A stretch of DNA of 64,000 nucleotides from Vermamoeba vermiformis (GCA_045837725.1 JBEWZL010000300.1:496001-560000), one strand, 5' to 3'. Shown: positions 2,695-53,414, numbered from the stretch's first letter. A program made the numbers and translations. Notes: generated by a model not told the origin, from the sequence alone.

Positions 2695-2725
<31 letters not shown>

Positions 2726-13199: not shown

Positions 13200-14927
13200 A
13201 TGCGGTTGAATCCGATTTGTTTGCTTTTAGTGGGCTTGATAAGCGCCATCATCGCAACGCCACCTGCCGGACCGTTTTGGATATCGCCAAGGACAGTTGC
13301 AAATAATACCGATGGAGGTAAGCCGTAATATATAATTGCATTATAGACAAAATAATATGTATGGTAGCTTTACCAGCAGATTTAAATTTCAAATTTTTAT
13401 GGATCGCTATCCATCAAGACTTTAAAATTCATTTTTGTACATTAATATAAATGCAATATTGAAAGTTTTTTTCATGCAGTTCCGGAGGAATTTGTCGCCG
13501 ATCGAGGCGTTTGGGCAAATCTGTCAACTGGTGCTGGGTCTAGAGCTGGCCTGCCGGTGGTACATATGGATTCAAAGGGCTATCTGTGGATTTACGGTGG
13601 CGTAGCTAGCTTTGACATGAATGCCATGTGGAATTACGATCTCGCTCGAGATCAATACAGATGGGTTGCGGGCATGGCAAATTTTGATGGACAATACAGT
13701 AACTTTGGCCAAATGGGCGTTCCTAGTAACGACACTTTCCCTGGCGGAAAAACTTACTCAGCTCATGCTATCGACAAAAACGATAATATCTGGATTTATG
13801 GCGGTCTTAGCGACAACACGCTGTGGATGTTCAATACGACCTCACTTCAGTTCACTTGGGTGGGTGGCAATAGCTCTAATGAGGTTGCTAAATATGGCGA
13901 GCTTGGTATGGCGTCAGAGGAGTACTGGCCTGGTCAGCTTGTAGGTGCGCGCATGGTCGTGGATTCGAAGAACAATCTTTGGTTGTTTGGGGGCTATATA
14001 GGACAGGTAGAGAGTAACGGCGTGTGGCACTATAACACGACATCGGGCATGTGGAGTCTTCAGTGGGGTGATCCAACAGCGACCCCTCCTTCATCAACCT
14101 TTCCAGATTATCAGAACAAGATCTGGCCTGGTCGATGGGGTCCTGGCTGTACAATCGACGAAGATGATCGTGTGTGGTTGTTTGGTGGCTCAGATAGCTC
14201 AACTGCATACCAGCTTTGGAATGATTTATGGTCGTTTGACACTAGAACTATCACGTGGCGAGTTGACCGAGATGCAGACGCATCAACGCTCTCTGGAAGC
14301 ATGTCATCATTTGATACGTATAGTATTTATAATTATCCTACTCAACGTGACGCAGCAAGTATGGTTGATAGACGTGACGGAACTTTCATAATGTACGGCG
14401 GAAGAAACAAATTTCAATACACCGTCTTTGATGATGTTTGGATATTCAATAAGACCAGCTCTTTATGGAAGTATGTTCATGGCAACGGTACTCAAGCAAG
14501 TCCCGTGTACGGCCAATATCGTGGTGCTGGTTCTAAGTTGGGCTCTCGACAAGCCTATGGTGCCGAGACAGGTCTAAGTGCCAAAGGTAACTTGATCATC
14601 TTTGGCGGCAATGACTTTGGAACCGTTACGTTCAACGACATCTGGATCATTCCGCAAGATCAGTGCGCGATGAATCTTCACGATTGTGATCCCAATGCAA
14701 CGTGTGCAACGACGTCATGGACTTATACATGTACGTGCAATGAAGGCTACGTCGGTGATGGTAAGACTTGCACTGTACCAGTACCTCAAGCCCCGACGAG
14801 CACTCAACCGATATCTAATCCGACTCCGACAAAACCCATTGCACCTACTGCCAAGACTTCCTCTGGATCTGAGGGCTTGATAGCATTTTCCTTTACTCTA
14901 TTCGTAGCTTTGATAGTGTTGTTATAA
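13200..14927 (+). CDS. Secreted, probably GPI-anchored Kelch beta-propeller protein with an EGF domain
   Basis: Exon 1 MRLNPICLLLVGLISAIIA is signal-like; one intron. Repeated W(I/L)(Y/F)GG...ND(L/I)W kelch motifs; EGF CAMNLHDCDPNATC...YTCTCNEGYVGDGKTC; P/T stalk; SSGS followed by a terminal hydrophobic tail. Confidence 0.85.
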
Positions 14928-25753: not shown

Positions 25754-28700
25754 TTATTCAATAATCACGGTGGCTGTATCGGAGTCACCGAAATTGTCAA
25801 TTTTGTACATCTCTTCGACGTGACAGCTTGGCATCGTGTAGACTCCTATCGAACACATTATTAGTCGCTCAAATCATATCTAATATATCATAGTAGGGTC
25901 TTAAAATAGCAACATACCTTTACGAAGAGCGAGAGCCTTGTACGAGTATATATTTCGACCGTAAAAGTTGTCGGCAAACGCATCCACTCCATCAAGACGA
26001 ATATCAATGTGACTCCACGCACTTCAATAGTATGTATAGCGTTAGTATTGATTATAACTGGATGATTAGTGTTTTTACTAACCTTGATCCGGACCTATAA
26101 TAACGGTGTTCACTGCGCAATTTTTCAAGAGGCTGTTTTACGCGAATAGGTTAGCAATCGAATATAACAATACGAGTGTTATTAATATGATAGTACCTCG
26201 AGACCGGCAGCTACAGGGTCCTGAACAGCAAAGAACTTGGTGGTGTCGTAATGAATGTCCTGTACAATCACTTCAACTGCGACATGTGCGCCGTGTTTGA
26301 CACGATACACGGTGCGACCGTCTTTTTGTTCCACTTTGACGTCGTTTGGATTTTCAATGCCGTACAATCGTCGATCGATGGTGTATCTGTCCTTGAGTGG
26401 TTTCTCACCGACCTTTGAATCGAGCTTTAATTGCGCGCTGTACCACACTGGAGCACCGGTCTGTAGTACCAACACATTAGTTATTTGTCGCAAGCAATAG
26501 GTTCTGTTACGCACCAGCTGCAAAGTTAATTGCGGCAAAGACTTGATGTCGACAGACGGGTCGATGCGAGCTTTCAGTGAAGAGGTACCAGGGATCAACT
26601 CGCCAAGGTAACGCTTGCCGAGCCACACTTTGACCTTGTACTCGCCACCAATGTCTTTCTCGACCTTTTCGTAGTACTGCGCGAGTGCAATCAAGCTCCA
26701 CATGTTGGCGTTAGTGTGGTACCAGTGACCGTTCACTCGGTTGTTCAACAACTCGCCCGTAGTTCGAGTCAGCAAGTCAGCATCTGTATCAGACAGTAAG
26801 CGATGCTAATTCATTCATATTTGTTCGTACCTTTGAACGTGTCCTTGTTCTCGAGCAGGGCAAGAATGGTCAAACTGCACAACTTTGGAGTGTTGCACAG
26901 CATGGACCAGGTGCTGTCACCTTCCTCGGTGTCTGACAAAGCTGAAGAAATGGACTTTTGAACTTTCTTGGCCTATTCGATATATAGATCCTCGTAAGTC
27001 ACAGTCGAAAATTAATAGGATGGGCGAACGTACCAAAGTGTCAATGAGTTTGGTCTCAGGAATTGACGCAAAGAACGCGAGTGCCTGTGAATGTTAGTTG
27101 GGACCAGACTAACGTTAATTTAATGGCAGTTGACTTACCAAGACGCTTTTGGCTGATTTGCCCAGTGTTTTAATCTTTTCAACAAGCTCCTTGGTCAATC
27201 CATCCTTCATCAAGTGCAAAACGTACGCGGCGTATCCCACTTCAACGGTGTCTTTTTTGGCGTTCTCGACGATGTCCTTCACGTACTCTTTGCAGTTGTA
27301 CAAGAGAGCGCTTGACACTTCAAACCTCGCTACAAAGAATACCGTCAGCACGAAAAGAGGTGCCAGAATGAGATTGGATTCGTACCTGATTTTGCCAAGG
27401 CCAACGCATGGGCCACTTGAACATTGACGTATGAATAGTCGTTGTGGCCGCTGCTCCAATACGCGAACCTGCCGTTGCCCATATGACGCAAACTCAGCGC
27501 CCTCACGTAGTCCTTGATATTCGCGTTGATCTCGTGGGCCGATTTTTGATTGGGAGTGCGCACGAATGAGCCTAAGGTCAAGTACGGCAAGGCTACGAGC
27601 AATTGTGAAGACATTTGTTCGCTGCACAGGTGACGATAGTCGCCAAGGTACGTCAAGGCATCTGATCGAGATTTAAATTTCCATATTAGGAAATGTGAAA
27701 GATATGTTGTTGTACGTACCGACACCTTGAGACAAGATCGATGGTGAAATATTGATGTTGATTTCACCAGTGCCAAGAATGTGCTCGTTAATGCTGATCG
27801 TATGAGCACCTGTCTCGTTCTTTTTGTCAAATCTGCCGAAGACGCTTCTTCGCACGCTGAGCGATTTGACTCTGACTGGGAATTCAATTGCGTCACTACG
27901 CTCAACTTCACCACTCGCCCTGCCCACAGCAACGACCTGCAAAGATAAGTTAATGCTACGACACACTTAGACTAAGTCGTACTTGAATAGCGCCATCAAG
28001 GTACTCAGCAGCAGTCAAATCGAATTCGACTGAAGTGCTCGAATTAGCTTTTATCGTGCCGCTGAACCCGTGCGCACCAGTGACCGTCAATGACTTGGTT
28101 CTGGCAGCCACTTTGAAGTGAATGTCGTGTTCTTGTCTGTTGTAAAGTGTCACGGGGAACGATGTCTTGTCACCGATGCACAAGTGTCTGAGCACGAGCG
28201 TGCTGATCGAGAACGGCTTTGTCACATTGAACACGCTTTCTTGCTTCGAAGCAACTGTTGCTCCAATCGCGAGAGCGAAGATCTTGTAGCGCTTGAGCTC
28301 AGTCGGTGCCTCAAACTCAAAGCTCGTTGCCTTGCTGCCTTTAGTGACATTGACAGTCTTGAAAAAGGCAAGTGGTCCATTGCTCTTTCGCACGGTAATG
28401 GGCGTAGCTTCTTGTGTCGAAACAGAACCACCTCCACCGTCACCACGCAGTCTCAGAACAAGGTAGATTTTAGATCCAGGGAGCACGCCTTGGTCCTCCA
28501 ACGTCCTGCACGGCATTCGTAAGAAATAGTTGCCTCAGATTGGTTGTCAACAATTTCGTACCTGTCATCCATTAGCATCTTTCCAAAATAGATCAGACGT
28601 GCTTGGTCAGGTGGAATTCCGGATTGTTCTTCTAACGCTCTTTTTAGCTCCATCAACGTCATGTCTTTGTGCCAAGTAATGGGAACCTCTGAATAGAAGA

Positions 28701-31700
28701 GGTGAGTGTAATTCTTTGAATGAAGTCCTTGATCGGATACTCACGTCTGCCCGTCAAAGTTACGACATAAACTACTCGAGTTGCTGTCCAACCGCATTGT
28801 CGACTGGTGGATGGCACTGCACGGAGTATTATTAATAACACATTAACTCGAAGCCAAGAGTCGCAGTCTATTTTTTACCTGTGAGTGAAGTATGGGCCTT
28901 GTACTGCGTCTTTTTCTTGTTCAAGTATTCCATGGGGTGCTCCAGCTCATACTTGGCCAGCTTCAAAACAGCATCATCGACCGCCCAGACAGTCATTTTG
29001 ACGTCTTCGTTGAGTGGTTGATCAAACTCGCAAGTAACTTGGCTCTTCTCTGCAGGTCCCAGAAGCTTGTTGACGTTCACTGAAAACTTGACATCTCGAT
29101 CGGATCGAATATTCAAAGTGGTAGATCCAATGAGATTCAGGTGACTAAAAGAAGTTAGTGCATGTTCCGGTAGACTTTGGCTTACATTTCTTGCCCTTCA
29201 ACCGAAGCACCAAAGCCAATAATTGAGCAGTAGACTGAAGCTCTCGGGGCCAAGTTATTGTGAAGAGGAATATCGATGGAGAAGTCTCCATTGTCGTCCA
29301 AAGTTTTCGAGATCTTAAGCAATTCGTGTGCTTTGACGTACACATTACACAGTCCGCGTTTGAAATACGTTGGCAAGCCGGTAACTGTAACTTTGGCGAT
29401 CTCATTGGCAACGTACTCGTTCTTATCGAGAGTGACCACAACATTTGACTTCGGCGCCACGTCATTCGCAATACCGAACACTTCAGAGCGTGCTGATGTG
29501 ACGTCTAATAACCCAGTTAGTACTGTCGTTGCTTTGTAGCATGAGACTTACTTCCGTGACTATCGGAGACGTAGGCTTGAATGAAGTATTCTCCCGGTTG
29601 CAAAGCGACAGGAATAGATTCACCTCTGTGAACTTGCTTCACGAACTCCTTGACAACAGAAATCTTTTGGTGCACTTTGGACCAGACCTCAAAGTACACA
29701 TTGGCGCCGTCAACGATCGCATTGTTCTCGTCGATAACGATGGCTTCGAACGAAAAAGGAAACGCGGCGCTGAATACTTGGTCTCGCTTAATGTTAATAC
29801 CAACGGCAAGACCAACAGGGCGAAGATTGGCCACGTGATTTCCATTCAACCGCTCACCGTTCTTTAACTGAGTATCTGCCTTGTATTCAATCGACACGAG
29901 ACTGGTTGAGTTTTGGACATTGAACGATGATTTGATGCGCGATGAGCCTCCCAATTCAACGTTGATTTTCTAGCACTTGTTAGTGTCAAGTCAATCAATA
30001 GTATATATCAATGCTTACGGCCAATGGGTCGATGACAACAGAGGAGAAAGGCGCGGAGTAGAACAAAAATTCGGGGTACTCGGGTAAGGACATGGCATCG
30101 CTACGAAAGTGTTAAAGAGTGAAATTGTTATAAATAAATATTACCTCTTAACAACGAAGCTTCCAGTGGTTGTAGCGCCAGTTACATCATCGCCGATGAA
30201 GGATTTGACCTCCGTATCGATATTCACCGTCTTGCTGGAAATATCTTGAGAAGATGACACAAGCACCTATTATCCCATGTTAGAGCCGTAGTAAAAATGA
30301 TATGACCAGTGAAAAAAACTTACTTCGTTATCGGGAACTCTGAACTCCTTGATCGGGAACTTAATCTGATGACAAACTTCGTCGTCGTACAAGAAACTGA
30401 CTTCGCCACTAATACAAACGCAAGGGTTAATTCACCACGCATCAACTCCGGTGCTACTTACACTCCAGGGTAAGCCGAAGTAGGGACTTGAACCTCGAAG
30501 TCGAAGCTTGGCGAACTTGAAAAAAAGGTTAAAAATGAAACTTATATCGACACCTTAGCTTACCTTTTTGCATCAACAGCACCCTTTGATATTTCAGAAC
30601 CATGTCCGTCTTTCACTACGTATCTCAAGTTATGGCCGAGATAACCTCCCTCTGCAGTGCGAGCGAATCCAATGATGTGAGCCTTCTCGCCAGGTTGGTA
30701 TAATCCGCGGTCAGTAGTAGCGTACAGGTCAATTTTCTGCGCATTTCCTCCAGCTACTACCTCGGGAACGTTGAACACGGCCCAATCACCATTAGCCACG
30801 ACTTTAAAACTCGTCACTAGCTGCTGTTAGTACAAACTAATGGTGCGTGTGATAGTGTCTTACCATTAGCTGGGATAATTGGCTTATCTTTGACGGAAAC
30901 GAACTCGCCCTTCTCATTGGCGTACACGATTGTTGGGTTGCTAATAGGCTTCAAATCTTTAGTGTAAGCAGTGCTGAAACAAATAAACAGTTAGATGATA
31001 CGTAAAAATAACAAGTCGTAGTAAAACTAACTTACATTTCGATGCCGTTTTCGTGCGCAAAAGTGTCAACGATCCAATCTGTCTTTTGTACAAAAAATGT
31101 TGCTTGATTTGGAATAGTAATCGCTAACAGCCTAAAAACTCAACTTAGTATTCGTATCAAAATTTAATTTAACGTTTGTTACGCACTTTTGCTCGGGCGA
31201 GAAATACCGTTCCAAATCGATAGTGAAGATTTGCATCTCGTGATTCAGGTCAGGCAGCACAATGTCACCGCCACCAACACTAGCACCCACTTGCGGCACT
31301 AAGTGCTGATCAAACGAGGCGTTGCAAATCGAGTACTCGTACTTCAACGAGGCAGCAATCATTTGCAATGAGGGTGTAGCGACGTTAGTGATCTTTGCGT
31401 TGCCAGTAGGCATGCATAATATTCCTCGAAATTTCTTGTACTTGCGAGTATAATCGCTGCCGAGGATTGTTCCGTCAGCGCTCATCAAAGAACTCTTGAA
31501 AGTCACTTCAAACTCCATTTCCTTTTGTGGGACCTTAACGCAGATCTGATCACCTTGTACGATAATATCTTCAACGTCAGTAGTCACGCGGATATAATCC
31601 TTGATGGTCGCAACGCATTCGGGGTGAATTGGGGTGGAGAATTGAAAACACGGGTTTGTGTTGATCGGGATGTGGAACCATTGCAAAGGTCGAATAGTGA

Positions 31701-34543: not shown

Positions 34544-36030
<1,487 letters not shown>

Positions 36031-36541: not shown

Positions 36542-39304
36542 ATGGATACAGAAGTAATTGCTAACCAACCTGTCGTCATTGACAATGTAAGCAATTTGCG
36601 TATCAAAAATTCAGCAAAATATTTATGATAGCCAGGATAGCCAATAATGACATTAGTTTCGAAAAATAACGATTTTGAGATTGAATTAAAATTGATCAAC
36701 GGGCAAATTTATTAATTGTTGATTTTAGGGCTCCGGCATTATCAAGGCTGGCTTTGCAGGAGAAGAATATCCAAAAGTTATATTTCCCTCATAGTACGTA
36801 CAGATTTAGACAACGTAGATATTTTTCACCACATCCACGACGAAACCCGAGACAAATAATTCAGTAATTAATTTTAATGTTAAATTATAGTGTCGGACGA
36901 CCAAAACATCTTCAGGTTATGGCTGGTGCCGTTGAAGGAGGCGAATTTGTTGGTCAAAAAGCCGAACAACTTCGTGGCTTATTGAAGTACATACAACCCT
37001 TCTAATTAGTGTCATAAAGGTATTAATATTATATAATAGATTAAGCTATCCTATCGAGCACGGTATTGTTAAAAATTTCTTGGATATGGAGCAACTATGG
37101 AATCACGCGTATCACGAGTTGTCAATCAACCCCGAAGACGTACGTTAATTCACGAACGCGTGCCCAGTAATCTAACTGCATCCAAATAGCACCCTGTGTT
37201 GCTGACAGAACCTCCCTTGAACCCAATCAAAAATAGAGAACAAGCCGCACAAATATTTTTCGAGACATTCAACGTCCCCGCTTTGTTCATTTCTCTGCAG
37301 GCAGTTTTGAGTTTGTACGTGCTAATACTGATCTAGCCTACGCATGATACTAACAATATTTTGCTCAGATACGCCTCTGGCAGAACTACTGGTGTCGTTC
37401 TAGATATCGGTGATGGTGTGACACACGCGGTTCCTATTTACGTACGTGGCTGACTATGTTTACGTCATAATAACATCACGTACAGGAAGGATTTACTATG
37501 CCAAATGCTGTTACGCGAATCGATTTGGCTGGCAGGTAAGGAATTAACAACCTGTAATATCGAGATAACGGAGCTAATAATTGGCGCACAATAGAGACGT
37601 GACTGAACACATGCAATTATTATTGCGAAAGTCTGGATACAACTTTCATACAACAGCAGAGAAAGAGATTGTACGAAACATCAAAGAGAAGACATGCTAC
37701 GTAGCATTCGATCCGCAAAAGGAAGAAGAGTTGTTGGAATCAGAAAAGAGCAGCAAAGCTGTGCAATTCAGTTACAAACTACCCGATGGCAACGTAATTG
37801 AGGTAAGCCCTTTTTTATGGTGATAGCGAATAAGGGAATGAGCTTGTTTTGTCGCTTGGGCAACGGCCGGCTTCCCATTTTTTCAAGCCGACGGAGCATC
37901 AAGCACCTATGGCCGAGTTGGTCTAAGGCGTTAGACTCAAGTTCTAATGGGGGTAACTCCGCGTGGGTTCGAATCCCACTGGGTGCAAGCAATTAATTTT
38001 TTTTTGCCTTCGCTCGCTCTGTTTTGTTGTTCTTGCTACTCGCGCTGGGTGCAAACACGACGAATTTTATTTTTTTTTTTGTCCTCGAGCGCTGTTTTTT
38101 CTTCTTGCGAATAATAGTATAGTTCTTGTAACCGTGACATTTTTTGTTGCAACAAGGTGCGCGAAGTAATTTTTTCTTCGCACGCGACAGGGTTGCAGTA
38201 ATTTTGTTCCCTCCATCCTGGCGGCGGATGACGGGAGCGGCACTGGTCCGTCAACAAGACAGCATGTCCGAGTGGTCTAAGGAGGATGACTAGAAATCAT
38301 CTGGGCTTGCCCGCGCAGGTTCAAATCCTGCTGCTGTCGATTACCTTTTTGCCCGTGCCTTAATCTGTTGAAAATCTTTTGTGTGGCGATCAGCGCTTCT
38401 TCGCTTGATGCACCATGAGACTACTTCGGGCCCGAATTTTTTTTTTCTAGCAAGTGGTTACCCACCAAGTATATTTGAAACCAACTCCAACTCCTATGCC
38501 AGCTGGCCGAACGCCGTTAGGAACTTCTTCGCTCGGGCCCAATTCAATTTTTTATTCGTGGTCTGTAGTTACCTGGTCACGTGCTCCAGCCAATCAACCA
38601 ACGGGTTCGTGGTGCACTTGGTAGCACGTCCGCTTAGCATGCGGGAGGTACGGGGATCGAAACCCTGCGAATCCAATTTCTTTTTTTTTTGTTTTTTGCC
38701 TCCTTGTTCGCCTTTTATGAGCTTAGTTCTTGGGTGCTGCAACAACAGTTAGGAACTCGTTTAGCTGATTGTTCTTTTTACGTGCACGATCAATTAACAT
38801 TTTTTTTTAGATCGGTCCCGAGCGTTTCAGAGCCCCCGAAATCCTGTTCCAACCCGATATTATCGGCGAAGAATATCCTGGTATTCACGAATGCCTCGTT
38901 AACTCGATTCAAAAGTGTGACATTGACATGCGAAAAACTCTGTATGGTAACATTTTGTTATCTGGAGGTTCAACCTTGTTCCCTGGTACGTTAGGAAACA
39001 AACCGCTCGCGCATTATTTTATTAACGTTGTATTTGAAAGGGTTTGGTGATCGGTTGTTGAAGGAGGTCAAAGGACTGTCACCAAAAGACACAAAGATAA
39101 AAATCTATGCACCTCCCGAGCGTAAATACAGTACCTGGATGGGTGGCTCTATTCTCGCTGCTTTGGCAACATTCAAAAAGATGTGGATCTCGCAGTAAGT
39201 ATCCAAAGATCCAAATTCAATGTGCGGTTGAGTAATCCTCCTTTCTTAGCGCGGAATACAAAGAAGATGGCTTCTCGGCAATTCACAGAAAGACTCTTTT
39301 CTAA
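36542..39304 (+). CDS. ARP1: Actin-related protein 1 (centractin, dynactin filament)
   Basis: [88 protein letters not shown]-terminal AIHRKTLF*: centractin-type rather than actin-type residues. Confidence 0.92.
37903..37987 (+). tRNA. tRNA-Leu (CAA)
   Basis: GCACCTA...TGGGTGCA acceptor stem; anticodon arm TTAGA-CTCAAGT-TCTAA; long variable arm; GTTCGAATC; downstream T-tract. Confidence 0.96.
38258..38339 (+). tRNA. tRNA-Ser (AGA)
   Basis: GACAGCA...TGCTGTCG (G73); anticodon arm GATGA-CTAGAAA-TCATC; variable arm GGGC-TT-GCCC; GTTCAAATC. Confidence 0.96.
38603..38675 (+). tRNA. tRNA-Ala (AGC), identical to the copy at 3010-3082
   Basis: Same 73-nt sequence as the minus-strand copy; a long T-tract follows. 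Confidence 0.96.
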
Positions 39305-41098: not shown

Positions 41099-44000
41099 AT
41101 GCAAAAGGTACGTGCTATTGCATTGATGCAATTCTTTGACTACGGTTATTAACCGATGATTCATTTCTTTAGCTAGCCATTTTATTATTCTTGGGTTTGA
41201 TTTCCCTTAATTGTTTTGCCTTGGCCCGCACATCCGACACCTCGGGTAAGCAATTATATAAATTCTAACATACGTCATCCCATTTACTCATATTAACGTC
41301 ATTTGTCATCCAAAGAACCAATCCCAGACGTGCCTCAAAGCGTTCCGATCGCGGAACCAGTTGATCCTTCTACTCTCCCGACCAATGAACCCGTAGCCCC
41401 TCAAGGCAATACCCCTGACCAATCTCCTGTGCCCGATACAACAACGGGTGGCGAGACAACCGTTCCGGTTAGTGAATCTCCAACGAGTATCCCATCCGAT
41501 CAACCTACCGGCGTTCCTGTTAGCGAGACCGGTGGCGATTCAACTATTCCTCAGGGCGAGGCTACTCCTGTGGTTGATTCAACTGCACCAACTAGCCAAG
41601 AGACTATCCCTCAAGGCGACGCTGCTCCTGTTGCAGACTCGACTGCTCCTCTTGCCGACTCAACTGTGCCCACTGGTGTAGAGACTGGTACTCCTCAGGG
41701 CGAAGCTACAACCCCGAGTGACCCGGTACCAACTGGTGACGGGTCAACCACTCCTCAGGAGGCTTCATCGCCGGTCGCATCTACTACCCCGGAGACTTCC
41801 GCTCCTACTGGTGGTGAGTCAAGCACTCCTCAAGGCGACGCTGCCCCTCTTGCCGACTCAACTGTACCCACTGGTGACACGACCACTCCTCAGGGTGAAA
41901 CTACAACCCCGACCGTAGAAACTACTCCTCAAAGCGACGCTGCTCCTGTTGCTGACTCAACTGTACCTACTGGTGGCGAGACCGCTCCTCAGGGTGATGC
42001 CACACCTCTTGCTGATACCCCTCAAGGCGATGCTGCTCCTGTTGCAGACTCGACTGCACCTACTGGTAACGAAGGTACACCAACTGGTGACACGACTACA
42101 CCTCAGAGCGAAACTACTCCTGTTGCAGACACAACTGCACCAACTGGTACTGAGACCACTCCTCAAGGTGATGCTTCTCCTGTTGCAGACTCAACTGCAC
42201 CTACCGGTGATGAGGCTCCTCAAGGCACCACTGCACCTCTTGCAGACTCAACTGCTCCAACTAGTGACACAACCACTCCTCAGGGCGAAGCTACTCCTGT
42301 TACAGACTCTACTGCTCCAACTGGTGATGCTGCTCCTCTTGTGGACACAACTGCACCAACTGGTGGCGAGACTACCCCTCAAGGTGATGCTACTCCTGTT
42401 GCAGACTCGACTGCACCTACTGGTGATACGACCACACCTCAGAGCGAAACTGCTCCTGTTGCTGACACAACTGCACCAACTGGTGGCGAGACTGCTCCTC
42501 AAGGTGATGCCACACCTCTTGCTGATACCCCTCAAGGCGACGCTGCTCCTGTTGCCGACTCGACTGTACTGGTAATGAGGCTACTCCTCAAAGCGACGCT
42601 GCACCTCTTGCAGACTCAACTGCCCCAACCAGTGATGAGGCCACTCCTCAGGGTGAAACTGCTCCTGTTGCTGACTCGACTGCACCTACTGGTGATGCAA
42701 CCACACCTCAGAGTGAAATTACTCCTGTTGCTGACACAACTGCACCAACTGGTGACGAGACTACTCCTCAAGGTGACGCTGCTCCTGTTGCAGACTCAAC
42801 TGCACCAACTAGTGGCGAGACCACTCCTCAGGGCGAAGCTACTCCTGTTACAGACTCTATTGCTCCTACCGGTGATGCTGCTCCTGTTGCTGACACAACT
42901 GCACCAACTGGTGGCGAGACTACTCCTCAAGGTGATGCCACACCTCTTGCTGATACCCCTCAAGGTGACGCTGCTCCTCTTGCCGACTCAACTGCACCCA
43001 CTGGTGACAATACCACTCCTCAGGGTGAAGCTACTCCTCAAAGTGATGTTGCCCCTCTTGCTGACTCGACTGCTCCCACTGGTGGCGAGACTACTCCTCA
43101 AGGTGATGCACCTCTTGCTGACTCAACTGCTCCTCAAAGCGACGCTGCACCTCTTGCAGACACTGCTCCTGCTGGTGATTCCTCTCCTCAAAGCGAGGCC
43201 CCAACTGGTGACACTACAACTCCTGTTGGCGATGAAACCAATTCCCCTGTTGACTCTAGCACTCCTGTTGGCGACTCCACTCCTGTTGGTGATAGCAATC
43301 CTCCTCTTGTGGAGAACACTCCTCTCGCTGACGATAACTCTACTGCTCCACTTGGAGACAGTTCTCCCGTTGGTGACAATTCTCCTGTCGATAGTGCTCC
43401 AGTTGGTGATAACAACCCACCAGTTGACACTCCTCTTGCTGAGAATGATAATGCTACTGTTCCTGTTGGTGAAAGCGCCCCTATTGCCGACAGTGCTCCA
43501 GTCGGAACACCCTTCTTGAGTGATGAAACCAACCCTCCTGTCGATGCACCTTTAGCTGATGATACCAACACCACTGCTCCTGTTGGTGACAACAACCCAC
43601 CAGTTGATGCACCTTTGGCCGACGATACCAACTCCACCGCTCCAGTTGGCAATGAAACCAACCCTCCTGTTGATGCTCCTCTCACTGATGACACCAACAC
43701 CACTGCTCCCATTGGTGACAATGCTCCAGTCGATGCTCCTCTTGCTGATAATAATCCCTACCCCATTGTTCTTTTTGTCCCGCCGGACAATGCTACTGCT
43801 CCAGTTGGCGACAGCAATCCTCCAGTTGATGCACCTTTGGCTGATGACACCAACACCACCGCTCCCATTGGCGACAATACTCCTTCAGTTGATGCACCTC
43901 TTGCTGGCGATGACAACAGCACTACACCTATTGGTGATACCAACCCTCCAGTTGAGGCACCTCTTGCTGATAACGATAACAGTACTGCTCCTTTGGCTGA

Positions 44001-46689
44001 CTCCACTCCAGTTGATGCACCTTTGGCCGAAGACACGAACACTACAACCCCAGTTGGTGACAGCAACCCACCAGTGGATGCTCCTTTGGCTGAAGATAAC
44101 AATGCCACTACACCAATTAGTGATAGCAATCCTCCAGTTGATGCACCTTTAGCTGATGATACCAACACCACCGCTCCTGTTGGTGACAATACTCCTTCAG
44201 TTGATGCACCTCTTGCTGATAATGATAACACTACTGCTCCTATTGGCGACTCAACACCTGTTGATGCACCTCTGGCCAACAACGACAACAGCACTGCTCC
44301 AGTTGGTGACAACAATCCACCAGTGGAAGCTCCTCTTGCTGATACGACAAACACCACCGCTCCCCTTGGAGATGATAGTAATCCTCCTGTTCAAGAGCCG
44401 ATTGCTGAGCCTGTCACTGAGCCAGTTGCAGCTCCCGTTGACGTTCCTGTGTCCACTCCAGTTGATGTACAAACCCCTGTTGATGTTCCAGTTGCTGCAC
44501 CAGTTGAAGTACAGCCTCCTGTTGAAGAGCCAGTCGCCGCACCTGTCTTTGTAGAGGTGCCTGTTAGTGCTCCTGTTGATGCCCCAGTTGATGTTCCCAT
44601 CAGCACTCCAGTCGATGCCCCAGTTGATGCTCCAGTTGATGCCCCAGTTGATGTTCCTGTTGCAACTCCTGTTGACACACCAGTTAATGTTCCTGTCAGC
44701 ACACCAGTCAACGCCCCTGTTGACGTTCCTGTCAGCACACCGGTTGATGCCCCTGTTGACGCTCCAGTGGCAGCTCCTGTCAGCACACCAGTCGATGCCC
44801 CTGTTGATGTTCCTGTTGCAACTCCTGTTGACATCCCCGTGTCAGTTCCTCTCTCTGCCCCTGTTGACACTCCAGTTGACGCTCCTGTTGAAGTTCCTGT
44901 CAGCACTCCAGTTGATACCCCTGTTGATGTTCCTGTTGCAGTTCCTGTCAGCACACCAGTCGATGCCCCTGTTGATGTTCCTGTTGCAACTCCTGTTGAC
45001 ATCCCCGTGTCAGTCCCTGTCTCTGCCCCAGTTACTACTCCAGTTGATGCACCAGTTGATGTTCCTGTTGCAGTTCCTGTCAGCACACCCGTTGCTACCC
45101 CTGTTGATGTTCCTGTTTCGACACCTGTAGATACCCCTGTGTCAGTCCCTGTTGCTGCACCGGTTGACGCTCCAGTCGCTGCACCTGTCTTTGTAGAGGT
45201 GCCTGTTAGTGCTCCTGTTGATACACCAGTTGATGTTCCTGTCAGCACTCCTGTCACTACCCCTGTCGCTGTTCCTGTCTCAGTCCCTGTCAGCACTCCT
45301 GTTGCAGTCCCTGTTGCATCACCTGTGGCCACTCCTGTCGCAGCCCCAGTCAAGGCTCCCACTGCTGCTCCCATCGCAGCTCCTGTCGCCGCTCCAGTCA
45401 AGGCACCAGTCTCTGCTCCTGTTACTGCCCCGACACCTGTTGCTGCCACTCCTGTCTTCGTTCCTCCAGCTCCTCAGTGTGGCAACAACATTGTTGAAAA
45501 TGGTGAACAATGTGATGGTGGCTCAGGATGTGGTGCCAACTGCCAATGTGTCGGCACAGCTCTTCCCACCATGCCATTCAGTCGTGACTGTATCGTCAGT
45601 GCTTGTGGCAACAACAAACTTGACTTTGGTGAGCAATGCGATGGTGGACAGAACTGCACAAGCAACTGCAATTGCGCAGCAGGCTCTGTTCCAACAGTTC
45701 CTCCTTCACCTGCTTGCACTTTGTGCGGCAACGGCAGAGTCGACTCTGGCGAAGATTGCGATGGTGGCAACTTCTGTGTGTCGTGCAAGTGTGCTTCTGG
45801 CTTCCAATCATCTGCTGACGGGTCATGCACACCAATCATTCCTCCCAAGAACGCTCAGGTCGTTCCCATTCTTGAGTGCTTCAAGCCTGCATCGAACGGT
45901 TTCTTCACTGCATTCGTTGGATGGAACAACCTTGACGGCAAGACTCAAACCATTGCTAAAAGTGACATGAACTTCTTCACGCCTGTCACTCCTAACGGTG
46001 GTGACATCACTGAATTCGCCAATGGCCTTCACATCGGCTATCCTTCATCACCCATCGTATTGACGTGGTCAGCAGACACCACAGTGCTCACTTGGAAGTT
46101 GTCTGACTTTGCTCTCGTCATTGACACCACCAACACTGCTGCCCAGTGCCCTGGAGATGTCACGCTCAAGATCTCGCTCTCTGTCGCAACGAACGGAAGT
46201 GCCACTTTGTCTCCTCAACAGCAAGTTGACTTGACATTGAAGTTCGCTGAACTCCTTGGCGTGTCTCCAGCTCGTTTGACTGTCATCATTGACCAAGTTG
46301 TGAGCACCAAGCGAAGCTCTACCTCGTCTTTGTCATTCTTGGTTAAGATCGCTCCTCCTACTAACGACAGCACACCACAACAATCCACCGCTGATGCCGT
46401 GAGCTCATTCCTCACTCGTCTCGACACTGGCGACTCGTTCTTGAAGGACGCTGTTGAAGCGACTGTTCCTACTCTTAGCGTTCAATCAGCTTCGGCCACA
46501 CCTCAACCCTTGCCCACCATTCAAACAGCCAAGACTGGCGTTACTGTGCCTGTTCCTCCTTCAGTCGCCACACCAACAAAGGAACCTATCGAAGCAGGCT
46601 CACGACCTCCTCGTGATTCGGTTTCAAGCTCATCGGTGCTTACTCCTTTGAGCGCGATTACAATTTTTGCTTTGTATATTCTTTTCTAA
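41099..46689 (+). CDS. Very large mucin-like surface glycoprotein with Cys-rich (CGNG..E.GEQCD) repeats and a GPI-type tail; frameshift near 42570
   Basis: MQK|LAIFIILGLISLNCFALA signal peptide; P/T/D-rich repeat stalk of about 1400 aa; three CGN..(V/L)(E/D).GE.CDGG repeats; globular VVPILEC...TAFVGWNN domain; SSSS plus hydrophobic end. Repeat sense moves from frame 2 to frame 1 near 42570, so this may be a pseudogene or an assembly error. Confidence 0.8.
41480..45460 (+). repeat. Successive coding tandem-repeat blocks (TPQGDAAPVADSTAPTG; PPVDAPLADDTNTTAPVGD; PVxx tetrapeptides)
   Basis: Directly visible degenerate repeats; the middle block is dense in NxT/S sequons; the last block has a 12-nt period. 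Confidence 0.9.
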
Positions 46690-50150: not shown

Positions 50151-53100
50151 ATGCAACTCAAAACTGTAAGTAACGCCCAGTGATTTGTTTAATACTAATA
50201 CTTACTCGTCAAATCACTCATAGTCTTTTACTCGTTAATATTCATCCGCTCGTTGTCATCCAGTTACTAACGAAAGCTTTGCAGTTTTGCTTTGTGGTGC
50301 TCTTGGGCATTCTTGCCTTAACTTCCATCGCTTCAGCACAACCTGTAGCTGGTAAGTAGTAAATCAGCGTTGGGAGGCAGAATATTCAATAGAGTTTTGA
50401 TTCATCCAATTCGTCGATCTGATCTAATTCGCCTTTTTCGGACAGATCCGCCCGTGGTCGACAATACTCCTCAAGCCGATAATACCACGATAATCGACCC
50501 CACACCTCAGGTTGACACTACTCCTCAAGCTGATGCCCCGCAAGCCGATACCACACCTCAGGCCGACACAACGCCACAAGTCGATAACACTCCTCAAGTC
50601 GACACTACGCCACAAGTCGACACTACGCCACAAGCTGATACCACACCGCAGGCCGACACAACACCACAAGTCGATAACACTCCTCAAGCTGACACTACGC
50701 CACAAGCAGACAATACTCCTCAAGGCGACGCCGCTCCTCAGGTCGACACTACTCCTCAAGCCGACAACTCACCGCAAGTTGATAACTCGCCCCAAGTAGA
50801 CACTACCCCACAAGCAGATAATACTCCTCAAAGCGACAACGCTCCTCAGGTTGACACTACTCCTCAATCTGATGCCCCTCAAGGCGATAGCACACCTCAG
50901 GCCGACACAACGCCACAAGCCGACAGTACTCCTCAGGTCGACACTACTCCTCAAGCTGATGCCCCTCAAGGTGACAGCGCGCCTCAGGCTGATTCGCCAC
51001 AAGCCGACAATACTCCTCAAGTTGACGCACCTCAAGCCGACAACTCACCCCAGGTAGATAACACTCCTCAAAGCGACAACGCTCCTCAGGTTGACACTAC
51101 TCCTCAATCCGACACCCCCCAAGGTGATAGCGCACCTCAAACCGTCGATACCCCGCAGGCCGATACCACTCCTCAATCTGACACGCCTCAAGCTGATAAC
51201 ACACCGCAAGTCGATAACTCGCCTCAAGCCGATGCTCCTCAAAGCGACAACTCACCACAAGTTGATAACACACCTCAAGCTGATACCACGCCTCAAGGTG
51301 TCGATACCCCTCAAGCGAACTCACCTCAGGCCGACAATACCCCTCAAGTAGACAACTCGCCCCAAGTCGACAATACTCCTCAAAGCAGCGCTCCTCAAGC
51401 TGATGCTCCTCAAGGTGTCGATACTCCTCAAGCCGATAATACCCCTCAAGTCGATTCGCCTCAAGCTGACGCTCCTCAAGCCGATACCACCCCTCAAAGC
51501 ACCCCTCAAGGTGATAATGCTCCTCAAGACAACGCTCCGCAGGTCGACAACTCGCCTCAAGTCGATAACACTCCTCAAAGCACCCCTCAAAGCGACAACG
51601 CTCCTCAAGTAGACACCCCTCAAGGCGATAATGCGCCGCAGGTTGACAACTCGCCTCAAGTTGATGCTCCTCAAAGCACCAACACTCCTCAGGCTGATAA
51701 CACCCCTCAAAGCGACAACTCACCGCAAGTTGACACACCTCAGGCCCAATCACCTCAAGGAGATAATGCTCCTCAAGTCGATGCTCCTTTAGCGAACGAC
51801 AATAACGCCACCACTCCTGTCGGCGACTCTACTCCTCCTGTCGATGCTCCTCTCGCGGACAATGATAACAGCACCGTGCCTGTTGGCGATAATACTCCCG
51901 TCGGCGTTGACACACCTGTCGATGCTCCTCTTGCGGACAACGATAATAGTACCGTGCCGGTCGGTGACAATACTCCTGTCAGCGTTGATACTCCCGTCGA
52001 TGCACCGATCTTCGTCGATGTGCCAATCGCTTCGCCTGTCGTTTCTACTCCGCCCACTGCTCCTGTCGCAGCCCCAGTCAAGGCTCCCACTGCTGCTCCC
52101 ATCGCAGCTCCTGTTGCCGCTCCAGTCAAGGGACCAGTCTCTGCTCCTGTTACTGCCCCGACACCTGTTGCTGCCACTCCTGTCTTCGTTCCTCCAGCTC
52201 CTCAGTGTGGCAACGGTCTTGTCGAGCAAGGTGAACAATGTGACGGCGGCGCTAATTGCACCAACTGCCAATGTATTAATGGCGCTCTTCCCACCATGCC
52301 ATTCAGTCGTGGCTGCCTTGTCCGTGCTTGCGGCAACGGCAACCTTGACTTTGGTGAGCAATGCGATGGTGGACAAAACTGCACAAGCAACTGCAATTGC
52401 GCAGCAGGCTCTGTTCCAACAGTTCCTCCTTCCGCTGCTTGCACTTTGTGCGGCAACGGCAGAGTCGACTCTGGTGAAGATTGTGATGGTGGCAACTTCT
52501 GTGTGTCGTGCAAGTGTGCTTCTGGCTTCCAATCATCTGCTGACGGATCATGCACACCAATCATTCCTCCCAAGAATGCTCAAGTCGTTCCCATTCTTGA
52601 GTGCTTCAAGCCAGCATCGAACGGTTTCTTCACTGCATTCGTTGGATGGAACAACCTTGACGGCAAGAATCAAACCATTCCTAAGGGCGAGCTCAACTTT
52701 TTCACGCCTGTCACCCCCACCACGACCAGCGACGTTACCGTCTTCGCTCCTGACCTTCACATCGGCTATCCTTCGTCGCCCATCATATTGACGTGGTCAG
52801 CAGACACCACAGTGCTCACATGGAAGTTGTCTGACTTTGCTCTCGTCATTGACACCACCAACGCTGCTGCCAAGTGCCCTGGAGATGTCACGCTCAAGAT
52901 CTCGCTTCAAGTTGAAGGTAGCTCTGCCACTTTGACTCCTCAACAACAAATCGACTTGACGTTGAAGTTCGCTGAACTCCTTGGCGTGTCTCCTGCTCGT
53001 TTGACTGTCATCGTCGACCTCGTGGTCGCTACTAAGCGCGCGACCAGCTCAAACCTGTCGTTCTTGGTGACTGTGGCACCTCCTGTTGCCAACACAACTG

Positions 53101-53414
53101 TGGCGCAGCAATCTACCGCTGATGCCGTGAGCTCATTCCTCACCCGTCTCGACACTGACAACTCGTTCTTGAAGACCGCTGTCAAGGATACCGTTAATTT
53201 GACCGTGCAATCGGCTTCAGTCACACCTCAACCCTTGCCCACCATTCAAACAGCCAAGACTGGCGTTACTGTGCCTGTTCCTCCCTCAGTCGCCACACCG
53301 ACGAATGTACCTGTCGAAGCAGGCTCACGACCTCCTCGTGATTCAGTTTCAAGCTCGTCAGTGCTTGTTCCATTGAGCTCAATTGCTCTTTTTGTTTTAT
53401 ACTCTCTTTTTTGA
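50151..53414 (+). CDS. Paralogous mucin-like surface glycoprotein with Cys-rich repeats and a GPI-type tail
   Basis: MQLKT|FCFVVLLGILALTSIASA signal peptide; two 5' introns as in the paralogue; (A/V)D(T/N)TPQ repeats; the C-terminal ~450 aa are highly similar to 45330-46689. Confidence 0.88.
50455..51785 (+). repeat. Coding 15-18-nt tandem repeat, xD(T/N)(T/S/A)PQ
   Basis: Dozens of degenerate cctcaag(c/t)(c/t)ga(c/t)a(a/c) units in a single reading frame. Confidence 0.9.

Follow-up and report, generated by a model that had tools for sequence, protein, structure and literature searches.

A gene of Vermamoeba vermiformis is predicted to encode a bacterial-type alpha-2-macroglobulin with an intact thioester motif, and the bait position of this macroglobulin is occupied by a ubiquitin-like domain. 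The gene lies in the window, the 64,000-nucleotide stretch of DNA that was analysed (GCA_045837725.1 JBEWZL010000300.1:496001-560000). Literature searches found no description of a macroglobulin with ubiquitin in its bait, and the features of the protein suggest an undescribed intracellular trap for ubiquitin-attacking enzymes. The reading tentatively preferred here is a cytosolic decoy trap whose bait would resist ordinary deubiquitinases and could be cut after R74 or in the linker that follows; it is put forward as the leading candidate and falls well short of being probable.

The macroglobulin and its bait position

The gene model was built by tblastn and Smith-Waterman alignment of P0001, a homologue of 1920 residues from another source, against the window, together with solving of the exon junctions, and the assembled frame is open (Table 1). 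It contains 28 GT-AG introns of 41-74 nt each, and a spliced, transcript-like contig of run X5 confirmed four of the four predicted introns in the stretch that it covers. P0001 is colinear with the window protein from end to end and shares its ubiquitin-like domain and tail. The Pfam order in P0001 is MG2, A2M_BRD, ubiquitin, A2M and bMG10, and the window exons show these domains piecewise. In P0001 the A2M domain scores 19.4 bits against a cut-off of 21, but the other three macroglobulin domains are above their cut-offs: MG2 at 35.7 bits (cut-off 32.8), A2M_BRD at residues 966-1113 (E 8.1e-07) and MG10 (PF17973) at 46.3 bits (cut-off 26.2).

Table 1. Features of the macroglobulin gene in the window (positions counted from the first nucleotide of the window)
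Feature	Position	Strand	Remarks
Whole gene, 29 exons, open frame of 1946 residues	25754..33169	-	ATG 33169-33167; stop ends at 25754
MG2 domain (Pfam PF01835)	30575..30730	-	30.2 bits, cut-off 32.8; just under
End of bait-region domain (Pfam A2M_BRD)	28958..29131	-	weak, E 0.044; below cut-off
Ubiquitin-like domain, part 1 (positions 1-11 and first base of codon 12)	28745..28778	-	exon 28816-28745; X5 contig joins 28745 to 28688
Intron in ubiquitin-like domain, 56 nt, GTGAGT..CAG	28689..28744	-	X5 joint 28688>28745 skips 56
Ubiquitin-like domain, middle exon (positions 12-54; IPPDQ, R42, I44, G47, K48)	28562..28688	-	Pfam PF00240, E 1.8e-07
Intron in ubiquitin-like domain, 56 nt, GTACGA..CAG	28506..28561	-	X5 joint 28504>28561 skips 56
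Ubiquitin-like domain, last part (positions 54-75, end LVLRLRG)	28442..28505	-	aligned to ubiquitin 55-76
GAC codon for Asp76 of the ubiquitin-like domain (residue 1229 of the protein)	28439..28441	-	GAT in X5 and second X1 contig
Linker GGGG-SVSTQEATPIT, from ubiquitin tail to conserved VRK.. start of next macroglobulin domain	28394..28438	-	maps by extrapolation onto disordered ECAM bait
A2M (Pfam PF00207), the macroglobulin domain that follows the bait	28106..28369	-	E 2.2e-07, 31 bits, cut-off 21
Thioester motif CSEQ (Cys1466)	27615..27626	-	spliced model
Start of bacterial-type MG10 domain (Pfam PF17973)	26191..26379	-	weak, 20.2 bits
EEMY motif	25805..25816	-	matches EXMY motif of C-terminal macroglobulin domain

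A profile made from the A2M exon matches ECAM, SaA2M and human A2M, and the best Foldseek matches to a model of P0001 residues 960-1400 were ECAM, C3, CD109, A2ML1 and SaA2M. The chain of MG2, bait-region, A2M and MG10 domains that characterizes the bacterial type I family is present, as is the CxEQ of the thioester family, read from the sequence as LCSEQ at residues 1465-1469 of the window protein. In bacterial A2Ms the C-terminal macroglobulin domain, which carries the EXMY motif, contacts the thioester domain according to the available part of the source (PMC4498604).

The ubiquitin tail is followed by 15 residues and then by the conserved PIxVRxNFxPLA that starts the next domain, whose profile matches ECAM from residue 956. 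The disordered bait of ECAM is given as Arg923-Leu942 in the same partial source (PMC4498604), and the mapping of the bait onto ECAM is an extrapolation from the profile match. The site holds a predicted folded ubiquitin-like domain between two stretches with pLDDT <50. The earlier note had called the ubiquitin a bait, and Pfam and the profile match to ECAM place it at the bait position of a macroglobulin.

A hydrophobicity scan of the window protein found no 19-residue stretch above 1.7 and no signal-like N-terminus or membrane segment; judged by that scan only, the export signal or lipobox of the bacterial type I family is missing. Over the first 45 residues, the highest hydrophobicity of any 10-residue stretch is 0.53 in the window protein, 0.53-1.67 in the 10 ubiquitin-bearing members tested and 2.75-3.02 in four of five non-ubiquitin homologues (these four being bacterial). 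The window macroglobulin is probably leaderless and cytosolic.

The ubiquitin-like domain and residue 76

The ubiquitin-like domain is internal (residues 1154-1229) and was read from the minus strand at 28778-28427 with two introns removed, both directly and in the spliced model. Ubiquitin position 1 is at 28778-28776, and the range 28425-28778 given in the earlier note is exact but spans the two GT-AG introns. The middle exon alone, 41 residues, matches Pfam ubiquitin (PF00240) with 31.3 bits against a cut-off of 25.4, and P0001 matches the same family at E 3.8e-14, with polyubiquitin predominating among its PDB matches. By these measures the resemblance to ubiquitin exceeds chance. The AlphaFold2 model gives the ubiquitin-like part the strand and helix order of a beta-grasp, beta-beta-alpha-beta-beta...beta, with 10-residue block mean pLDDT of 75-91 across most of its length and pLDDT <50 in the flanks 158-162, 167-192 and 269-281. 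Sequence match and predicted fold together place the domain in the PF00240 beta-grasp family. It does not have the free C-terminal Gly-Gly of a conjugatable modifier; its tail, LRLRG-D, runs on into the protein, and it is therefore a ubiquitin-like domain and not a modifier.

The residues that the earlier note had listed as kept or lost proved correct to the base. L8, I36, P37, P38, D39, Q40, R42, L43, I44, G47 and K48 are identical to near-canonical ubiquitin, as are S65, V70, L71, R72, L73, R74 and G75 towards the tail. The substitutions are K6>V, K11>R, K29>A, K33>Q, K63>P and G76>D, and Gly4 follows directly at 28438-28427. K27 is also retained, and Q41>A and H68>Y are present.

The Asp codon is GAC in the window and GAT in both the X5 contig and another X1 contig, which has a depth of 155 out of 462 and represents a second DNA haplotype; Asp76 is therefore not a sequencing error. 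The possibility raised at the outset that reads would show GGT GGC at this position fails, as the contigs read one Asp codon or the other. Among the X5 differences shown, 20 of 23 are synonymous, including D76 GAC>GAT, the adjacent Gly and V70. Being 95-99% alike, the X5 contig and this second haplotype contribute little depth. D76 and the Gly run are also found in P0001, which is 61% identical overall to the window protein and is the only independent close relative from which D76 is known. A 25-residue segment over the tail is identical at 18 of 25 positions between the two proteins, a score reached by 28% of such segments, and by this comparison the conservation of the tail is unexceptional. 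The stretch of P0001 equivalent to the Gly4/Ser linker has pLDDT <50. A Gly-rich run ahead of the next domain also occurs in three of six aligned non-ubiquitin homologues, so Gly4 need not be a purpose-built linker.

Relatives and comparable systems

Eleven relatives with a ubiquitin-like domain at the bait site were found, four of them named as Dictyostelia; with the window protein they make 12 sequences, 11 full-length and one, P0078, a fragment with a near-canonical ubiquitin, to which the window domain is identical at 33 of 75 positions. CxEQ occurs in 11/11 full-length members and EEMY in 9/11. All 12 sequences share R42, K48, R72, L73 and G75, which disposes of the alternative that the ubiquitin surface varies at random. 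The earlier note had called for residue 76 to be compared across relatives. Asp is common to the window protein and P0001, but the tail is GG in 10/12, and on this alignment G76D is a trait of one small clade and not of the whole family. R74 is found only in the window protein, P0001 and the fragment P0078, and no full-length member has R74 and G76 together. The window clade retains more ubiquitin-specific residues (IPxDQ, I44, G47, L71, R74) than the GG-bearing clade. The tree did not distinguish one shared insertion event from separate events in the two ubiquitin-bearing clades.

The closest counterparts by architecture are the uncharacterised 'ubiquitin domain-containing proteins' of Heterostelium album PN500 and Cavenderia fasciculata and hypothetical proteins of Acytostelium subglobosum and Dictyostelium citrinum. 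They share with the window protein a ubiquitin-like domain between A2M_BRD and A2M, CxEQ, bMG10 and an N-terminus that is not signal-like. In the whole-protein alignment their identity to the window's first exon is 16-23%, and they form a separate clade in the tree. Their tail, RL[SHYF]GG, leads into an acidic linker; G76 is thus retained and R74 is gone. Unlike the window clade, they have a clear ubiquitin-like match at the N-terminus. Literature searches found no functional study of these dictyostelid macroglobulins.

ECAM/YfhM of E. coli (PDB 5a42, 4rtd, 4ziq) and Salmonella SaA2M (4u48), both type I bacterial alpha-2-macroglobulins, are the best structural and the best profile matches and have in common with the window protein the macroglobulin chain, bait-region domain, CxEQ, bacterial-type MG10 and EXMY. 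However, they are periplasmic lipoproteins with a short, disordered and promiscuous bait, whereas the window protein lacks a signal-like N-terminus, comes from a eukaryotic gene of 29 exons and has a folded ubiquitin-like domain in its bait. The engineered A2Mcap of yeast display (PMC9918453) and A2ML1 with a TEV site (PDB 7q61/7q62) share a principle with it, namely that a new bait directs the covalent trap against a protease of choice; they are man-made and extracellular, whereas the window protein is natural and apparently cytosolic, with a whole folded domain as bait. Dictyostelium DdiCPRas2, a COG2373/A2M-like protein with an inserted cpRAS GTPase domain (PMC2430557), is likewise an amoebozoan homologue of bacterial-type macroglobulins with a foreign signalling domain among the macroglobulin domains. 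Its insert is a GTPase and not a ubiquitin, a word with 0 occurrences in that paper.

Possible roles of the ubiquitin-like bait

In the preferred reading, the decoy trap, the bait loop would hold a folded ubiquitin decoy between two disordered linkers in place of the ordinary bait peptide. By analogy with ECAM or human A2M, a protease would dock on the ubiquitin body and cut the tail or linker, untethering the bait; the molecule would then rearrange and the Cys1466-Gln1469 thioester would couple to the protease. The window lineage keeps the full L71-R72-L73-R74-G75 tail with Asp at 76. Conventional deubiquitinases need Gly76, and thus the amoeba's own ubiquitin-processing enzymes should not spring the trap. 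It had been claimed beforehand that G76 substitutions block such cleavage; this holds for Ub G76V fusions, which are deubiquitinase-resistant and stable in the available extract of PMC9703124, and a block by Asp76 is extrapolated from Val at this position. Enzymes that bind ubiquitin and cut elsewhere could spring the trap. Candidates are R74|G75 clippase-type Josephins of intracellular bacteria, Arg-specific proteases and enzymes that cut the Gly/Ser linker. In line with the earlier claim that some pathogen enzymes cut after R74, bacterial 'clippases' are described as cutting R74|G75 and needing R74 and L73 in the part of the preprint available (bioRxiv 10.1101/2024.07.24.604956); some also need R72, and some are specific for peptide-linked (M1) ubiquitin. 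The window domain, with L71-R72-L73-R74-G75 intact and peptide-linked, has the sequence features that a clippase substrate would require, and cutting would depend on tolerance of Asp at P2' and of the altered residues in the body. The dictyostelid-type relatives apparently take the inverse route to the same end, with GG kept and R74 lost. Of the earlier proposal that the bait is insensitive to deubiquitinases and engages foreign enzymes, the bait position, the real D76 and the conserved surface stand; foreign cleavage and the block by Asp are what we infer.

The main rival, which is possible although we think it unlikely, is that the domain is an uncleavable docking or targeting module, a permanent ubiquitin signal for receptors such as the proteasome, Cdc48/p97, autophagy or ESCRT adaptors. 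It could bring the macroglobulin or its thioester-captured cargo to a disposal machine, or mark its own protein for turnover in a UFD-like manner via the conserved K48. K48 is invariant in 12/12, and the window protein and P0001 both retain L8, I44 and V70. Dictyostelid-type members have a second, N-terminal ubiquitin-like or Rad60-SLD match, and proteasome shuttle factors carry an N-terminal ubiquitin-like domain. However, the window clade has no Pfam ubiquitin-like match at its N-terminus, where the model has a mean pLDDT of 65.5. As far as the excerpted source goes, G76-substituted fusions are ubiquitylated on K29/K48 or extracted by Cdc48 via the hydrophobic patch (PMC9703124), and the window protein resembles them in having a position-76 substitution in a peptide-linked fusion with K48 available. 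The UFD degron described there is an N-terminal uncleavable ubiquitin with K29 and K48 as acceptors, whereas the window domain is internal, with Ala at 29 and Asp at 76, and does not qualify as one. The cleavable-looking GG of 10/12 relatives would be superfluous in a pure docking module, and the exact bait position and conserved thioester hardware argue that cutting matters.

Doubtful is the idea that the domain is a relaxed relic, in which an ancestral GG was cut by a dedicated or general deubiquitinase until, in this lineage, the site was lost through one G>A transition (GGY>GAY). D76 would then have no adaptive meaning, and the protein would now be a generic trap through its disordered linkers or have another role. 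GG is the majority state, one transition suffices, and both linkers, being predicted to be disordered, would be open to any protease. Between the window protein and P0001, identity over the ubiquitin core (positions 1-53) is 52%, below the protein average. However, D76, the flanking LRLRG and the Gly run are the same in these two proteins despite differences at 39% of positions, and tail changes among close haplotypes are synonymous only. Decay would also predict fewer ubiquitin-specific residues in the window clade than in the GG clade, and the opposite is seen.

It is very improbable that Asp created a new motif, either LRGD|G as an Asp-specific, caspase-like site or RGD as an adhesion motif exposed by a flexible Gly linker. 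RGD is an adhesion motif and caspase-like enzymes cleave after Asp; R74-G75-D76 does read RGD, and D76-G77 gives a small-residue P1' context in a segment predicted to be disordered. However, extracellular adhesion is unlikely for a protein with no signal-like N-terminus or membrane segment, Arg at P3 and Gly at P2 are poor for known caspases, and chance alone would yield such a three-residue motif whenever G76 changes to Asp. X1 DNA contigs covering the site, the other Asp codon in the second contig and the X5 contig, the splicing of the latter at the predicted junctions and the colinearity of P0001 throughout rule out, for practical purposes, an error of sequencing or assembly and a mis-spliced gene model feigning a ubiquitin domain.

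The decoy trap may be taken further, to a cytosolic covalent 'mousetrap' for ubiquitin-attacking enzymes in which an integrated decoy is tuned by keeping R74 and changing G76 to Asp. The cell's own deubiquitinases would be excluded, and tail-clipping or non-canonical ubiquitin proteases injected by intracellular bacteria or giant viruses would be captured and perhaps passed to the proteasome. This full version is rather unlikely. If true, it would amount to a cell-autonomous immunity that works through a decoy and covalent capture; in concept this resembles the integrated decoys in immune receptors of plants, with a different output.

The macroglobulin gene and its ubiquitin-like domain

The ubiquitin-like domain of the window belongs to a minus-strand gene of the alpha-2-macroglobulin type, the exons of which match the Pfam families MG2, A2M_BRD (weakly), A2M and bMG10. 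P0001, a 1920-residue protein from another source and the only close relative of the window protein, aligns colinearly to the window between 33163 and 25757. When every junction was solved for GT-AG introns, a gene of 29 exons was obtained with 28 introns of 41-74 nt, mostly of the form GTAAGT...YAG. The encoded protein has the motif LCSEQ, with a predicted thioester cysteine at residue 1466, and EEMY at residue 1927. In bacterial macroglobulins EXMY is one motif of the C-terminal domain that touches the thioester domain (PMC4498604).

Features of the window gene and of the related protein P0001
Feature	Coordinates	Strand	Remark
Open frame, 1946 residues	ATG 33169, stop ending 25754	minus	
Ubiquitin-like domain	28778-28427	minus	coding once introns 28744-28689 and 28561-28506 are removed
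Asp at ubiquitin position 76 (D76)	28441-28439	minus	codon GAC
Four Gly after D76	28438-28427	minus	
P0001 MG2	residues 640-716		Pfam
P0001 A2M_BRD	residues 966-1113		Pfam
P0001 ubiquitin	residues 1155-1227		Pfam
P0001 A2M	residues 1254-1340		Pfam
P0001 bMG10	residues 1780-1905		Pfam

A position-by-position comparison with near-canonical ubiquitin showed that the window domain retains L8, K27, I36-P37-P38-D39-Q40, R42, L43, I44, G47, K48, S65, V70 and L71-R72-L73-R74-G75, and that the lysine positions 6, 11, 29, 33 and 63 are occupied by V, R, A, Q and P. The residues listed in the earlier note proved correct in every item and its coordinates exact when the minus-strand sequence and this comparison were consulted. 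The resemblance to ubiquitin is not chance: the 41-residue middle exon alone matches Pfam ubiquitin with an E value of 1.8e-07, above the curated cut-off, and 33 of the 75 positions are identical to near-canonical ubiquitin.

Evidence for splicing comes from a contig of run X5 that is 95-99% alike the window. It is joined at 27934>27981, 28504>28561, 28688>28745 and 29144>29186, which is every predicted intron in its stretch and includes both introns of the ubiquitin-like domain. None of the indexed runs that contain the stretch is registered as RNA, and X5 is so labelled by guess, with the spliced joints as the ground for regarding it as RNA; the simplest account of a contig from which four canonical introns are missing is a transcript. 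Two RNA runs under the same species label, X15 and X17, gave 13 and 19 reads, all less than 95% alike the window and 30 of the 32 less than 90%, and these cover 28040-28416 only. No read of either run lies on the ubiquitin tail and they are uninformative on residue 76. They apparently derive from a homologue that has diverged and that is thus expressed in material under that species label. The reads also diverge in the linker, where one loose end encodes S-V-T-T-D-A-A-T-P-I.

Several other features of the window were recorded. The macroglobulin gene is adjoined by an exon of a MAP-kinase-like gene (34620-35228, minus, by eye), and an open frame at 13446-14927 (plus) has, by eye, Kelch-like repeats, an EGF-like Cys module and a C-terminal hydrophobic tail. 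Two large paralogous open frames on the plus strand, 41297-46689 and 50349-53414, have a GC content of 0.50-0.53, a strong negative GC skew and long Thr/Pro/Asp-rich repeat arrays; behind the arrays come modules rich in Cys, a C-terminal domain that is conserved, and a tail of hydrophobic residues. Their products look like mucin-like surface proteins. Rfam places five tRNA genes in two small clusters, 2670-3082 (minus) and 37903-38675 (plus).

Bait position and fold of the domain

An AlphaFold2 model of P0001 residues 960-1400, built on a 16-row alignment, reached a mean pLDDT of 77.4, and its best structural matches are ECAM (the E. coli macroglobulin), complement C3, CD109, A2ML1 and Salmonella A2M (SaA2M). 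The ESM Atlas returned only bacterial A2M clusters under 0.9 for P0001 1100-1500. Model residues 194-267 have the strand and helix order of a beta-grasp, and the 10-residue block means of pLDDT in the ubiquitin-like part are 75-91 over most of its length. The pLDDT falls below 50 at model residues 158-162, 167-192 and 269-281, the last of which comprise G75 and D76 together with the Gly run and six residues beyond it. In the model the domain is therefore a folded bead between two floppy strings. A ubiquitin-like domain at the N-terminus of the window clade was also considered; it gave no Pfam match, and the region has a beta-beta-alpha-beta start in a model with a mean pLDDT of only 65.5.

Single exons searched against the PDB gave no macroglobulin match, and a profile was needed to obtain matches. 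To make the profile, the window exon was aligned to 14 short fragments of bacterial macroglobulins; conservation starts at 'PIxVRxNFxPLA', 15 residues past D76, and upstream of this point the bacterial fragments are variable and low in complexity. The profile matches ECAM, SaA2M and human A2M, with 8 distinct sequences at E values up to 0.001, and profile position 78 corresponds to ECAM residue 956. In cleaved ECAM the 20 bait residues Arg923-Leu942 are without density (PMC4498604). Counting back without gaps, the tail and linker of the window domain would fall on this stretch of the ECAM bait.

Relatives and the variation of their tails

When the window exon was searched exhaustively with phmmer, 163 proteins matched at E values up to 0.001, and among the 150 listed nearly all are macroglobulins of the bacterial type, about 2000 residues long. 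The ubiquitin domain was present in 7 of 152 proteins scanned locally, and a word-based search with one ubiquitin-bearing protein gave 46 matches, 7 with PF00240. Four of these 7 have a named source: Acytostelium subglobosum, Heterostelium album, Cavenderia fasciculata and Dictyostelium citrinum; in H. album and C. fasciculata the database name is 'ubiquitin domain-containing protein'. Two scans of metagenome contigs, one with P0001 and one with an alignment of the window exon and P0001, found no further relative. In all, 12 sequences have the domain at the bait site: the window protein, 10 other full-length proteins and one fragment (P0078). CxEQ is present in all 11 full-length proteins and EEMY in 9 of them.

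R42, K48, R72, L73 and G75 are invariant in the 12 sequences, and R74 occurs in the window protein, P0001 and P0078 only. The tail ends in GG in 10 of 12, usually followed by a small residue and then acidic residues; it reads RLSGG, RLHGG, RLYGG or RLFGG in the dictyostelid-type clade and LRLRGG in P0078. LRLRG-D followed by four or five Gly is found only in the window protein and P0001. The replacement of G76 that the earlier note had seen in the window is thus shared with P0001 and goes no further, the other 10 sequences having G76. None of the 11 full-length members has a fully canonical tail, as each has lost either R74 or G76. A tree of the region after the bait, made by a quick method with 29 rows, paired the window protein with P0001 on long branches (support 100); a separate clade (support 100) comprises the nine dictyostelid-type proteins and a third (support 96) the non-ubiquitin proteins. 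The tree is compatible with one origin of the ubiquitin insertion and with more than one.

Two of the relatives have further domains. P0078, which is 503 residues long, has an intein-like Hint domain at the bait position (residues about 105-435, Pfam PT-HINT, E 6.2e-16) that starts with Cys, ends with His-Asn and has Lys, which is not a nucleophile, at +1. Immediately after the Hint domain comes a near-canonical ubiquitin with the ending LRLRGG-GD, and the A2M domain follows. P0154 (3390 residues) has protein-kinase domains (PF07714, PF00069) ahead of the ubiquitin-baited macroglobulin; the fusion may be genuine, or two genes may have been merged in the prediction.

Possible roles of a ubiquitin domain in the bait

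The highest 10-residue hydrophobicity in the first 45 residues is 0.53 for the window protein, and the 10 ubiquitin-bearing members tested all lie within 0.53-1.67, compared with 2.75-3.02 in four of five non-ubiquitin homologues, and a hydrophobicity scan found no 19-residue stretch above 1.7. Because its N-terminal hydrophobicity is low relative to the non-ubiquitin homologues, this crude test points to an intracellular window protein. P0157-P0159, bacterial-type macroglobulins of bdelloid rotifers (Adineta), have no ubiquitin domain; P0157 is also without a signal-like N-terminus and has a Gly-rich run at the bait.

Macroglobulins fire when a disordered bait is cut and untethered (PMC4498604). 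It is possible, and we put it forward tentatively, that the window protein is a cytosolic thioester trap in which a ubiquitin decoy in the bait lures ubiquitin-directed proteases, with one tail determinant disabled per clade; we infer its location, its cleavage and the reactivity of its thioester alike. The enzymes with which the cell processes its own ubiquitin precursors would cut a tail that is fully canonical, and each clade would have one determinant, R74 or G76, disabled. Ubiquitin fusions carrying G76V are resistant to deubiquitinases (DUBs; PMC9703124). Josephin-type clippases of Simkania, Burkholderia pyrrocinia and other bacteria cut ubiquitin at R74|G75, require R74 and L73, and in some cases act on peptide-linked ubiquitin only (bioRxiv 10.1101/2024.07.24.604956). 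The LRLRG tail of the window clade, without G76, could still be attacked by enzymes with a cleavage site ahead of G75 or within the linker.

The main alternative is a domain that always stays intact and acts as a ubiquitin signal built into the protein, directed at receptors or at turnover. G76V fusions are degraded via K29 and K48 or extracted by Cdc48 via the hydrophobic patch (PMC9703124), and the invariant K48 and the retained I44 patch agree with such a role; less in keeping with it are the GG found in most relatives and the location at the bait, and we consider it somewhat unlikely. Neutral loss of the cleavage site is less probable again. D76 is known from one independent close relative, P0001, which is 61% identical to the window protein (1190 of 1953 columns) and exactly alike from V70 to the Gly run. 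The tail and linker are conserved like a folded domain and unlike a fast-evolving generic bait, because identity is 71% in ubiquitin 54-76 and 79% in the linker against 78% in the following domain (52% in ubiquitin 1-53). This conservation is not exceptional: a 25-residue stretch over the tail has 18 identical residues, 28% of such stretches are equal or better, and the idea of an exceptionally conserved tail was dropped. A new Asp-dependent or RGD motif is very improbable.

An artefact can practically be dismissed, and the sequencing error at position 76 for which the earlier note had allowed is ruled out: in the contig of X5, and likewise in another contig from the DNA run X1 (depth 155 of 462), position 28439 is A on the plus strand, so that GAC becomes GAT, still Asp; both have GGC as the next Gly codon and GTC for V70. 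Among the differences listed for X5, 20 of 23 are synonymous (48 further differences were found across all runs). X1, probably the run from which the window derives, contains two contig versions of parts of the gene; at 28349-28532 their depths are about 307 and 155, and the lower-depth versions have 8 differences in 184 nt at 28349-28532 and 15 in 172 nt at 29072-29242; X1 also has a 3-base deletion at 28833, within an intron. The two versions suggest two haplotypes or a mixed culture.

Full-text searches of a literature collection short of most subscription journals turned up no description of a macroglobulin with ubiquitin in its bait, and an earlier account may exist elsewhere. The dictyostelid ubiquitin-bearing proteins are already in public databases under uninformative names. 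The nearest known systems are a macroglobulin-like protein of Dictyostelium into which a GTPase is inserted (PMC2430557) and macroglobulins with engineered baits (PMC9918453). A preprint on the CAGE complex (10.1101/2025.09.22.677704) was set aside as a prior description; it concerns a different family, and neither ubiquitin nor thioester occurs in it.

The contrast between the clades, GG without R74 in one and R74 without G76 in the other, gives a testable hypothesis on how the trap would avoid the cell's own enzymes. If the proposal of a cytosolic decoy trap is true, the protein would be a ready-made natural scaffold with which to capture covalently and identify ubiquitin-directed proteases.

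Alpha-2-macroglobulins are extracellular, broad-spectrum protease traps. Intracellular pathogens inject deubiquitinases and ubiquitin clippases that disarm host defence, and amoebae are the natural hosts of many intracellular bacteria. A leaderless, ubiquitin-baited macroglobulin would carry the trap mechanism to the cytosol and aim it at deubiquitinases and ubiquitin clippases, which, if true, would give these hosts a form of cell-autonomous immunity that is new in kind.
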